A stretch of DNA of 39,384 nucleotides, from the NCBI GenBank assembly GCA_048621055.1, contig JBMCXO010000002.1, forward strand, positions 1-39,384, written 5' to 3'. Both the position numbers and the translations under genes were made by a program. Of this stretch, positions 2,012 through 9,755 are shown piece by piece (position 1 is the stretch's first letter; each line of letters begins with the position of its first letter). Under the pieces are notes generated by a model, which was not told the origin of the DNA, did not search any database, and saw only the letters and a list, made by a program, of their open reading frames with translations. The stretch is from Candidatus Natronoplasma sp. GTDB taxonomy: Archaea > Thermoplasmatota > Thermoplasmata > Halarchaeoplasmatales > Halarchaeoplasmataceae.

Positions 2012-5000
2012 ATGAGAGAACTTGTAGAGGCTTTTTTTGAGGAATCAAACATAGTAGGTCATCATATTGAATCGTACAACGATTTTTTACCTACGGCCGA
2101 TAATCCAAGCAACAGAGCACAAAAAATAATCGATAATATACGGATAGGATTCGCCGAAGGTGGATGGGGGAATATCAAGCTCGATCCTGAAAAAGTGGAC
2201 GGTGAGGACATACAGATAAGGGTCGGAAGAAAAAGAACTGAAGACGGTAGGATCCCTCCAAATTCTGAACCAACGATCCGGATAAAAAAACCGACCATCA
2301 AAGAAGCCAGTGGTTCTGAACATAAACTCACGCCTCACGAGGCAAGACTGAGAGACCTATATTACGATGCAGAACTAGAGATGAAATTCAGCATTATACG
2401 AGAGGGAATAGAAGAAGAGCCAAAATGGATATCTGTGGGTAGACTGCCCGTGATGATAGGATCTAAGGTATGCAACCTTCATCTTGATAATCTGGACAAA
2501 ACTGTAGAAGAAGTGCTCAATGTGGATCCAGAGAGCAAAGAAGTTACGGAGATGTCCAGAGATGACAAGGTCACGGAACTCGGTGAAGATCCTGTGGACC
2601 CTCAGGGATATTTCATCATAAGCGGAACTGAAAGGAACCTGATGGCCGTGGAGGATATGGCGACCAACAGAGTGATGTGCGAGATAAACGAAAAATACGG
2701 AAGAAAACATGAAGTGGCGAAAATATTCTCTCAGAGACACGGTTTCAGGGCTATGACGAGACTCGAAAGGAAAAAAGACGGTATGATAACCGTTTCGGTT
2801 CCTTCGGCTAGAGGCGATATCCCCCTGATCATCTTGATGAAAGCCCTAGGGATGGAAAGGGACGAGGAGATCTACAATTCTATAGTAACAGAGCCCGAGA
2901 TGGCAAGTCTAGTGTTCGCCAACATTGAGATGTGCCAAGAAGAAGAAGAGTACTCTCCAGAAGGAGTGTATGACCAGGAAGATGCTATGGCCTATCTCGA
3001 AAGGAAGTTCGCCACAGGACAGGCAGAAGAATACAGGCGTAGAAAGATAGAATCGATCTTAGACAGATCGTTGCTGCCTCATCTTGGAGACAAAAAAGAG
3101 AACCGGATGAAAAAGGCAGTGTTCCTGGGAAGGATGGCTAGAGCGATACTCGAACTCTATATGGGGGAGAGAGAATCTGACGATAAGGATCATTACGCTA
3201 ACAAGAGGTTGAAACTCGCAGGCGATCTGATATCAGATCTGTTCCGAGTCTCGGTCGTAAATCTGCTGAAGGACCTAAAATATCAACTCGAGAGGAATTT
3301 CAGAAAGAAGGGAGATATCAGGATCAAATCATCCATCAGGCCTGATCTTCTAAGCAACAAATTACAGCATGCTATGGCAACAGGAAATTGGGTCGGCGGT
3401 AGAACTGGTATTTCTCAACTGTTGGATCGGACCTCCAATATGGCGACTATAAGTCATCTTAGGAGGGTCAAATCACCTTTGTCTAGGAGTCAACCCCATT
3501 TCGAAGCTAGAGAACTTCATCCCACACATTGGGGCAGACTATGTCCCAACGAAACACCAGAAGGACAGAACTGCGGTTTAGTAAAAACCTCAGCGCTCAT
3601 GATCAACGTTTCGAAGGGTGAAGAACCGATGGAAGTCCGCTGGAAACTCCATGACGTGGGTCTTAAAGAGATGGGCCAGGGATCTGAAGCAACCACGAAG
3701 GTATATCTCAACGGAGATCTTGTTGGAGTCGTTAAAGATCCTGAAGAATTTGTTAAGAATGTGAGATACGAAAGGAGAAAAGGAGGCATCTCTGGGCAAG
3801 TCAATCTGAGATACGACGAAAAAATGAACGAAGTGATAGTGAACTCCGACGAGGGCAGAGTACGAAGACCCCTCCTGGTAATAGAAGATGGAAGCGTTAA
3901 TTTCAGCACTGATGTTATAGAAGAACTTGAACAGGGTAAGAGAAACGTCGACTCTCTCTTCGAAGATGGCTTTGTAGAGTGGATAGACGCTGAAGAAGAA
4001 GAAGATATTTACGTCGCGCTTTATCCCTTTGATCTACCGGACAAATGTAACGAATGCGAGGAACCTTTATCCGAGGCAGATTTAAAATGGACCAATATGG
4101 GTTCAGGAGAAGATATAGCTAAAATAGAGTGCAGGAGATGCGGTGGAAAGATGGAAGTCGAATCTAATATCGAAGAAGAACATACCCATATGGAAGTCGA
4201 CCCGCTTCTTATGCTCGGCGCTTCGACAGGTTTGGTTCCCTTCGCAGAACATAATGCCGCTCCACGATGTTCTATGGGAGCTAACATGATGAAGCAGTCC
4301 CTGGGATTGAACGCATCGAATTACAGGACTAGGCCAGATACGAGAGAACACCTTCTTCACTACCCTCAGTTGTCGCTTATGCAGACGGAAACTATGGATC
4401 TGGTCAACTACAATAAAAGACCCGCAGGACAAAACTTTGTCGTGGCGGTCATGCCTTATCACGGTTACAATATGGAGGATGCTATCGTGATGAATAGGGC
4501 CGCGATAGATAGAGCCCTAGGTAGATCCACCTTCTTTAGAACTTATACTGCCGAAGAAAGAAAGTATCCCGGAGGTCAGGAGGATGAATTTCAGATCCCT
4601 GACCCTGACGTTAGAGGAGCTAGAAGCGACCAGCAGTACAGCAAATTAGATAAGGACGGGTTGATAAGCCCCGAAACCAAAGTAGATGGAGGTGAAGTCA
4701 TCGTAGGTAAAACCTCACCACCTAGATTCCTTGAAGAGGACACAGACCTGATGGCCCCTCAGAAAAGAAGGGAGACCTCTGAGATAGTTAGACCTAGAGA
4801 GAAGGGATGGATAGATTCCATCATGCTCACAGAATCAGAAGACGGGAGTAGAGTAGTCAAAACGAAGATAAGAGACCAAAGGATCCCTGAGCTCGGTGAT
4901 AAATTCACTTCTAGGCACGGTCAAAAAGGAGTTATAGGTAAGATGGTAGAACCCGAAGACCTGCCGTTCACCGAGGAAGGCGTTGTTCCTGACCTTATAG

Positions 5001-5631
5001 TTAATCCACACGCGATGCCATCGAGGATGACCGTAGCCCACATGCTGGAGATGCTTGGGGGTAAAGTCGGATCTTTAGAAGGTAGATTCATCGATAGTAC
5101 ACCTTTCAGCGGTGAAAGCGAAGATGCTCTGAAAGAGGCACTAAGAGAAGCTGGTTTCAAATCCAACGGCACCGAAATCCTTTACGATGGAAGGAGCGGA
5201 GAGATGCTTGAAGCGGAGATATACATGGGAGTCATCTATTACCAAAAATTGCATCACATGGTATCTAACAAACTCCACAGCAGGTCTAGAGGACCGGTTC
5301 AGATACTGACGAGGCAGCCTACCGAGGGGCGCTCTCGTAAGGGCGGCTTGAGGTTCGGTGAGATGGAGAGGAACTGTCTCATAGGCCACGGCACGGCCAT
5401 GGTCATAAAAGATAGATTACTCGATCAGTCAGACGGCACGACTGAATACATCTGCGGCAATCCAGACTGTGGACATATAGCCATACTTGACAGCAACGGA
5501 GAGTTGAGATGTCCCGTCTGTGGAGAAAAGTCAGATGTATACCAGATCCAGACCAGTTTCGCTTTCAAACTTTTGATGGATGAATTGAGATCGCTTGGAG
5601 TCACCATGCGTTTGAATGTGGAGGATCAAAG

Positions 5632-5635
<4 letters not shown>
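2012..5635 (+). CDS. rpoB: DNA-directed RNA polymerase subunit B (Rpo2), unsplit, with lineage-specific insertions
   Basis: 1207 aa. Conserved blocks include GYFIISGTER, RLKLAGDL, CPNETPEGQNCGLVK, MPYHGYNMEDAIVMN, SRHGQKGV, NPHAMPSRMT, FGEMERNCLIGHG and the C-terminal zinc ribbon CGNPDCGH...CPVCGE. The B'' and B' parts are fused in one ORF. Confidence 0.97.

Positions 5636-9755
<4,120 letters not shown>

Follow-up and report, generated by a model that had tools for sequence, protein, structure and literature searches.

The window analysed here, a stretch of 39,384 nucleotides from Candidatus Natronoplasma sp. (contig JBMCXO010000002.1), encodes RpoB, a large subunit of RNA polymerase (RNAP), with an insert of 44 residues. 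We consider it likely that this segment (residues 676-719) is a structural zinc ribbon with four cysteine ligands (Cys4) and that it forms an accessory surface element on the outer face of RpoB. The segment was inherited within the phylum Thermoplasmatota and is unrelated to the splitting of rpoB into separate B'' and B' genes. The rpoB gene of the window is a single open reading frame (ORF), and its translation agrees with the 1207 amino acids (aa) given in an earlier reading of this DNA made from the letters alone (the sequence-only reading). All seven Pfam domains from Rpb2_1 to Rpb2_7 occur in order within this one ORF, and the NCBIfam equivalog model for full-length RpoB (NF006335) matched residues 2-1206 with 1567.3 bits, against a cutoff of 1402. 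By both the curated cutoff and the domain content of the single ORF, the gene product is archaeal Rpo2 in its unsplit form. The gene and the parts of its insert are as follows.

2012..5635, plus strand: unsplit rpoB (Rpo2), 1207 aa; from the ORF translation, Pfam and NCBIfam.
4037..4168, plus strand: 44-residue insert, residues 676-719 (PDKCNEC...KMEVESN); from the phmmer gap, motif spacing and AlphaFold2 (AF2).
4046..4057, plus strand: first zinc knuckle, C679-x2-C682; invariant over the distinct insert sequences.
4088..4102, plus strand: W693-x-N695-x-G697 motif in the first ribbon strand; invariant in the Cys4 forms.
4130..4141, plus strand: second zinc knuckle, C707-x2-C710, at the turn of a predicted beta-hairpin (702-707/713-718); invariant, with strands assigned by DSSP.

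Using phmmer, we compared the window protein with the RpoB chains in the PDB. The proteins of Pyrococcus, Thermococcus and three Sulfolobales (Sulfolobus/Saccharolobus), which are 1117-1131 aa long, each aligned in two blocks. In the solved chains these blocks abut (630/630, 635/635 and 637/635), and query residues 676-719 are left unmatched. Moreover, the spacing from the DAEEEE motif to the HTHxE motif is 65 residues here versus 20 in every parsed archaeal representative outside Thermoplasmatota. Both results bear out the sequence-only reading, which had noticed about 45 extra residues and placed them, essentially rightly, at 4040-4180. The insert falls inside Pfam Rpb2_5 (647-731), directly ahead of the HTHxE motif with which the hybrid-binding domain begins. 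The ribbon would occupy the loop between Rpb2_5, the last external domain of RpoB, and that hybrid-binding domain.

The insert has the two invariant CxxC pairs of a Cys4 zinc ribbon (C679/C682 and C707/C710), at exactly the residues named in the sequence-only reading. All four cysteines were unchanged over 91 distinct insert sequences, which cannot be put down to chance because mean column identity in the insert is only about 55%. P676, W693, N695 and G697 are likewise invariant in the Cys4 group (alignments of 48 and 35 sequences), and conservation there exceeds 90% at S687, D690 and L705. Across these alignments, the four cysteines and the W-x-N-x-G strand show strong constraint. The net charge of the insert is -1.5 on average (range, -11 to +3), and the alignment contains no conserved basic residue.

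The fold was predicted in two AF2 runs, one on residues 8-1207 with the 48-sequence alignment and the other on a 59-residue fragment (668-726) with 35 sequences. In the fragment run, the mean predicted local distance difference test score (pLDDT) was 81, with 84-91 for the ribbon; in the full-length run, pLDDT was locally 72-88 for residues ~537-727 and 80-88 for the insert. DSSP assigned strands at 691-693, 702-707 and 713-718 in both. The prediction is a three-stranded antiparallel sheet in which C707-x2-C710 lies at the hairpin turn and C679-x2-C682 in the preceding loop. In the models this placement of the Cys pairs is the classic zinc-ribbon arrangement, in agreement with the sequence-only reading, which had described the pairs as spaced like a zinc ribbon. 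The module would bind one structural zinc ion. A Foldseek search of the PDB with the predicted ribbon returned zinc ribbons as all of its top neighbours, namely Rpp21, Elf1/ELOF1, aIF2-beta/eIF2-beta and TFS. The best of these was Rpp21 (PDB 2ZAE_B/1X0T; Foldseek probability 0.95, TMq 0.53, root mean square deviation 2.5 A over 42 columns), at 19% identity and an E-value of 0.28.

At the level of families, no Pfam entry matched the insert above its gathering cutoff; DUF7479 reached 19 bits (cutoff 27) and Zn_ribbon_Elf1 13 bits (cutoff 29.8). Membership in an RNAP-associated ribbon family (Elf1, TFS/Rpb9 or Rpo12) was not reached at the curated thresholds. A profile of the insert run against the PDB did retrieve tandem C2H2 arrays, with a best whole-sequence E-value of 1e-9 and a best single stretch of 8e-4. 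This match arises because the 28-residue spacing of the Cys pairs equals the C2H2 repeat period. No conserved His lies between the pairs, and we rejected a C2H2 zinc finger and treat the match as spurious.

Nearly all of the phylum Thermoplasmatota shares the insert by inheritance, and it is no peculiarity of this genome, as the following sequence comparisons show. The best 120 matches to the window RpoB among 5.8 billion proteins were 1193-1211 aa long and 62-100% identical to it, and all 120 keep the CxxC...CxxC pairs plus P676 and W-x-N-x-G. Every named entry among them belongs to Thermoplasmatota (Ca. Natronoplasma, ~80% identical; Methanomassiliicoccales, ~63%). When residues 520-800 were searched against 1.84 billion cluster representatives (clustered at 50% identity), the insert appeared only in Thermoplasmatota-like clusters: P0021, P0121, P0122 (the cluster of Thermoplasmatales I-plasma) and P0124, plus fragments. 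Four of the RpoB cluster representatives (P0124, P0149, P0286 and P0155) are frameshifted or adaptor-terminated fragments, P0155 ending in ...SYTHLTLPTNREV and the tail of P0124 being out of frame; their lengths are therefore no evidence of gene splitting. None of the sequences examined from outside Thermoplasmatota carried the insert. The sequence-only reading had proposed a lineage-specific module, and this is what the distribution gives. It had also reckoned that finding the Cys pairs in many archaeal RpoB proteins would speak against an insertion; the pairs do occur in many RpoB proteins, but only within Thermoplasmatota, where the segment is still an insertion.

We also surveyed one genome per GTDB species for the motif EWxD[AT]EEEE, which yielded at least 119 loci. 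In Thermoplasmatota the rpoB gene was unsplit in 81 of the loci that allowed a judgement, and the loci listed fell into three insert states: Cys4, longer and Cys-less, and absent. The Cys4 state has a DAEEEE-to-HTHxE spacing of 63-68 and was found in Thermoplasma sp., Thermoplasmataceae, Thermoplasmatales I-plasma and other Thermoplasmatales metagenome-assembled genomes (MAGs), DHVE2, Methanomassiliicoccales, Methanomethylophilaceae, Halarchaeoplasma and many MAGs named 'Thermoplasmata archaeon'. The Cys-less state has a spacing of 76-98 and none of the four ligand cysteines, and includes every Poseidoniales/Marine Group II locus among the matches listed. The absent state, with the canonical spacing of 20 residues, was seen in three species-level Thermoplasmatota MAGs (L043, match at 526-552 on the minus strand; L063, 2598-2624 on the minus strand; and L110). 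Their rpoB is still one ORF, of ~1146 aa in L110.

The Poseidoniales insert is 11-33 residues longer than the Cys4 form and comes in two length classes: loci that carry the name Poseidoniaceae or Poseidonia have a spacing of ~76-79, and other loci, Ca. Thalassarchaeum among them, one of ~90. The cysteines of the first knuckle are replaced by S/V and S/N, and a seven-residue 'MPNG...' expansion stands in place of the second. Nevertheless, the segment retains P-x-x-(R)P...V-x-W-x-N-L-G in register with the Cys4 form. This shared strand is the main evidence that the two inserts are homologous, and by sequence the Poseidoniales insert is best described as a zinc-free descendant of the ribbon that has lost its ligands. 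The Cys-less Poseidoniales loci include L005, L007, L008, L018-L020, L022, L023, L028, L032, L058 and L067. Four further loci (L046, L052, L055 and L105) place a Thermoplasmatota rpoB, of the Poseidoniales type in two and Cys4 in two, on contigs of bins labelled as bacterial (Deltaproteobacteria bacterium AH-558-G13, Faecalibacterium sp. CAG:74, Yoonia sp. and Firmicutes bacterium CAG:194). Contamination of these species-representative bins is the probable explanation.

The history of the insert was examined with a neighbour-joining (NJ) tree of full-length RpoB from which the insert was masked (55 sequences, 1082 columns, 100 bootstraps). L110 was the only insert-free locus complete enough to be included; L043 and L063 were left out. 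Thermoplasmatota and, within it, the Cys-less Poseidoniales were each monophyletic with 100% bootstrap support. L110 joined the Cys4 lineages in 76% of the replicates, and in 0% did it fall outside all insert-bearing lineages. A tree of the B' part alone left the insert-free lineage unresolved (34% and 11% support). The most economical reading of these data, for which the evidence is moderate, would be a single gain in the common ancestor, followed by ligand loss and expansion in Poseidoniales and by clean excision in L043, L063 and L110. The placement of L110 in the tree suggests a precise secondary loss. Because one lineage with an unsplit rpoB does without the insert, the module is accessory and dispensable for polymerase function.

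The sequence-only reading had placed the insert at the linker where rpoB is split into B'' and B' in other archaea. The position of that junction was mapped along three independent routes, which agree on residues ~555-563.

3674..3700, plus strand: equivalent of the B''/B' split, residues ~555-563, with no insertion here; from the NCBIfam models, B' N-termini and L085.

The NCBIfam B'' model NF007175 (496 positions) covers query residues 2-554, and the B'-length model TIGR03670 (599 positions) covers 564-1206. The latter match spans 643 residues versus 599 model positions, and the ~44 extra residues are the insert. At least 15 B'-type cluster representatives, with Woesearchaeota and Diapherotrites among the named examples, begin at query 554-561, their residues 1-9 aligning to query 554-564. 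The complete 605-aa B' among them (P0131) starts MALDKTKVYING. P0168, a candidate B'-type protein, was rejected as a partial Chara gene model. Finally, in an actual split locus from Aenigmatarchaeota (L085), a 493-aa B'' ending in ...NIIKNMKTQVKT overlaps by 4 nt a 597-aa B' whose start, MNDIFLNG, lies opposite TKVYLNG at query 559-565. The PDB chains searched with phmmer held no solved split RpoB on which to place the junction. As aligned here, the junction falls between Pfam Rpb2_3 (469-533) and Rpb2_4 (564-625), and at this point the window RpoB is no longer than the unsplit Pyrococcus RpoB in the phmmer alignment. The insert (676-719) does not coincide with it; it starts ~115 residues farther downstream, inside the B' part. 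A different rearrangement was seen in another lineage with split rpoB. In P0145 (1428 aa), whose cluster counts 14 members from separate contigs, one ORF carries the Pfam domains Rpb2_4 to Rpb2_7 and, immediately after them, Rpb1_1 to Rpb1_5; it is an RpoB'-RpoA' fusion, which the JGI annotation calls subunit A'.

The location of the insert bears on what the ribbon may do. 'External' domains are named for lying away from the cleft (naming as in PMC3564978 and PMC5467213), and in eukaryotes the external 2/protrusion surface of Rpb2 docks TFIIF, ELL-EAF, Elongin and PAF1-LEO1 (PMC10716050, PMC5467213). The assignment of external 1 and external 2 differs between sources, yeast residues 648 and 669 being placed in 'External 1' by PMC3564978 as opposed to PMC10716050. 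A residue-level mapping of the human RPB2 'external 2' contacts (P617...I673, PMC10716050) was rejected, as the residue identities mismatch the numbering of the human chain. Since the contact residues could not be mapped reliably, we claim only domain-level proximity to this docking surface. In our alignments, fungal Rpb2 runs straight through the insertion site, its loop there being about as long but free of cysteines, and the human Rpb2 loop is short. Because eukaryotic Rpb2 loops vary at this site, it appears to be an insertion hot spot and a tolerated surface loop. Judging by the domain names and the variability of the loop, the ribbon would project into solvent from the outer face of the enzyme, on its RpoB side. 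There it would serve as an accessory surface element rather than in catalysis or nucleic-acid binding, acting either as a rigid patch on which a protein partner specific to the lineage docks or as a local stabiliser.

Several other explanations of the insert have to be weighed. The sequence-only reading had offered a relic linker, that is, leftover intergenic or terminal sequence at the junction of a secondary rpoB''-rpoB' re-fusion. A secondary fusion in the phylum is itself plausible because the best-scoring insert-free sequences in this region are B'-type proteins from split genes (P0123, P0125 and P0131), and the unsplit state of 81 of the judgeable loci fits with it. However, an insert that starts ~115 residues inside the B' part is not a scar of that event. 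The true junction has no extra length, a folded module with invariant Cys4 is unlike a junction scar, and this origin is almost certainly wrong. Little more credit can be given to a ribbon obtained by duplicating the C-terminal clamp ribbon of RpoB or by capturing an RNAP-associated one (Elf1, Rpo12 or the TFS N-domain). The second knuckle is locally similar to the clamp ribbon (KIECRRCGGKMEV versus ELRCPVCGEKSDV) and Zn_ribbon_Elf1 gave a sub-threshold Pfam match (E = 0.12), but this likeness is that of a generic CxxCG knuckle and every Pfam match stays under its gathering cutoff. Internal duplication was rejected on the hhalign comparison of clamp ribbon and insert, which gave 15% probability over 17 columns.

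A more serious competitor, though still an unlikely one, is that the ribbon is a neutral passenger, a self-folding element in a tolerant loop with its cysteines kept only for folding and with no partner or role. The site accommodates 20 to 98 residues across archaea and eukaryotes, one lineage has lost the module entirely, Poseidoniales have lost the metal ligands, and the insert has neither a Pfam family nor a known partner. Against this, little or no change is seen between deeply diverged orders at the non-ligand surface positions S687, D690, W693, N695, G697 and L705, and the W-x-N-x-G strand outlasts the ligands, a constraint above the usual folding need. The conservation of these surface residues, and of W-x-N-x-G where the zinc ligands are gone, suggests more than a bare folding constraint. 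Contact with upstream DNA or nascent RNA, as made by the TFB/TFIIB or TFS/TFIIS ribbons, would suit the nucleic-acid-associated Foldseek neighbours (Rpp21, Elf1 and TFS), but those structural matches are non-significant and the host domain is 'external', away from the cleft (PMC3564978, PMC5467213). With an average charge of -1.5, down to -11, and no conserved basic residue, the acidic ribbon disfavours nucleic-acid binding, which we regard as highly improbable. A more specific version of the docking role would make the ribbon a platform for a Thermoplasmatota-specific initiation or elongation factor, or an in cis stand-in for a trans-acting zinc-ribbon factor. It may find its analogy in the docking of TFIIF, ELL-EAF, Elongin and PAF1-LEO1 on external domains (PMC10716050, PMC5467213), and we hold it to be doubtful. 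The genes for TFE alpha and beta are reported absent in Thermoplasmata (PMC4495717, PMC7289017); a link between this absence and the ribbon is speculation only.

We therefore favour an accessory Cys4 ribbon on the outer face of RpoB, and several points weigh against that reading. The full-length AF2 model was poor (mean pLDDT 55.7) and was not used for the fold search or for inferring contacts. The Foldseek E-values were all 0.28 or higher, with no significant match. The history comes from a single-gene NJ tree, in which 76% is moderate support for loss over primary absence. The genome survey was anchored on EWxD[AT]EEEE, and lineages without this motif fall outside its sample. Lastly, the docking role is a guess.

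Elements of this kind have parallels in other systems. Lane and Darst reportedly described, in 2010, lineage-specific insertions in the large subunits of bacterial RNAP (beta SI1/SI2, beta' SI3 and others). Like these, the Thermoplasmatota insert would be an extra folded domain that occupies a surface loop of a large subunit, flanked by blocks conserved universally; it would be confined to one phylum-level lineage, variable or lost inside it, and not needed for catalysis. Among the bacterial inserts the folds are BBM2 or sandwich-barrel hybrid domains, whereas the archaeal one is a 44-residue Cys4 ribbon known from sequence and prediction. The Rpb2 loops of S. cerevisiae and S. pombe share its insertion point (D-A/T-E-E-E-E to T-H-C-E) and approximate length, but lack Cys pairs and do not resemble the ribbon in sequence. 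The C-terminal clamp ribbon of RpoB/Rpb2 is a Cys4 ribbon in the same polypeptide; it differs in being universal in archaea and eukaryotes, in lying in the clamp and in having no detectable homology to the insert by hhalign. The ribbon of Rpp21, an archaeal RNase P protein, is the nearest structural neighbour of the AF2 model, but the protein is unrelated, as is its function, and the resemblance is one of fold class only. As for the ligand loss, Makarova et al. are said to have reported in 2001 a recurrent loss of Cys ligands among zinc-ribbon ribosomal proteins, giving C+ and C- forms. The Poseidoniales insert resembles the C- forms of S14, L31, L33 and L36, with the strand motif kept and all four cysteines replaced; unlike them, it combines the loss with an expansion of the hairpin by 7-30 residues, across a whole order and without a paralogue pair.

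Other features of RpoB and its surroundings are listed below. The order of the RNAP cluster is rpoH-rpoB-rpoA'-rpoA''-L30e-nusA.

1710-1976: rpoH.
2492..2560, plus strand: smaller variable insertion in RpoB, residues ~161-183, between Pfam Rpb2_1 and Rpb2_2; from the phmmer gap.
5453..5521, plus strand: canonical C-terminal clamp Cys4 zinc ribbon of RpoB, C1148/C1153/C1167/C1170; from the Cys positions.
5632-8295: rpoA'.
8292-9755: rpoA''.

The sequence-only reading had also pointed to a second, smaller insertion near residues 165-190. It is genuine when measured against Thermococcales, as the Thermococcus and Pyrococcus chains leave a gap opposite query 161-183 in the phmmer alignments. Within Thermoplasmatota this segment is poorly conserved in sequence and length, and it is shorter in the insert-free L110; it looks like a variable loop rather than a module. 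In the neighbouring RpoA'' (487 aa), we observed an N-terminal extension of ~95 residues (window 8292-8580, residues 1-~98) that is absent from all solved archaeal A'' chains, query 100-470 aligning to residues 17-386 of a solved chain. In the extension an acidic helical segment precedes a Lys-rich run, and Pfam gave no significant match to it.

Nothing relevant on this insert, or on rpoB indels in Thermoplasmatota, turned up in the searchable literature, paywalled papers being beyond its reach. Zinc ribbons in RNAP are familiar, as are lineage-specific inserts of its large subunits, and the Thermoplasmatota insert is a further example. To our knowledge, far more work has gone into lineage-specific decorations of bacterial RNAP than into those of the archaeal enzyme, which have hardly been studied. 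The importance of the insert is moderate, the module being dispensable in one lineage and its role inferred. Separating it from the B''/B' junction removes a mistaken tie to the split/unsplit rpoB character of archaeal phylogeny. As a rare genomic change that is easy to score, in one of three states (Cys4, Cys-less expanded or absent), the insert can help to place uncultured lineages and to flag contaminated bins. If the docking or substitution reading were true, the Cys-less form of Poseidoniales and the insert-free lineage would mark changes of partner. In any case, a conserved, predicted metal-binding knob on the outer face of RpoB, in a clade reported to lack TFE, offers a concrete target for structural and interaction studies.

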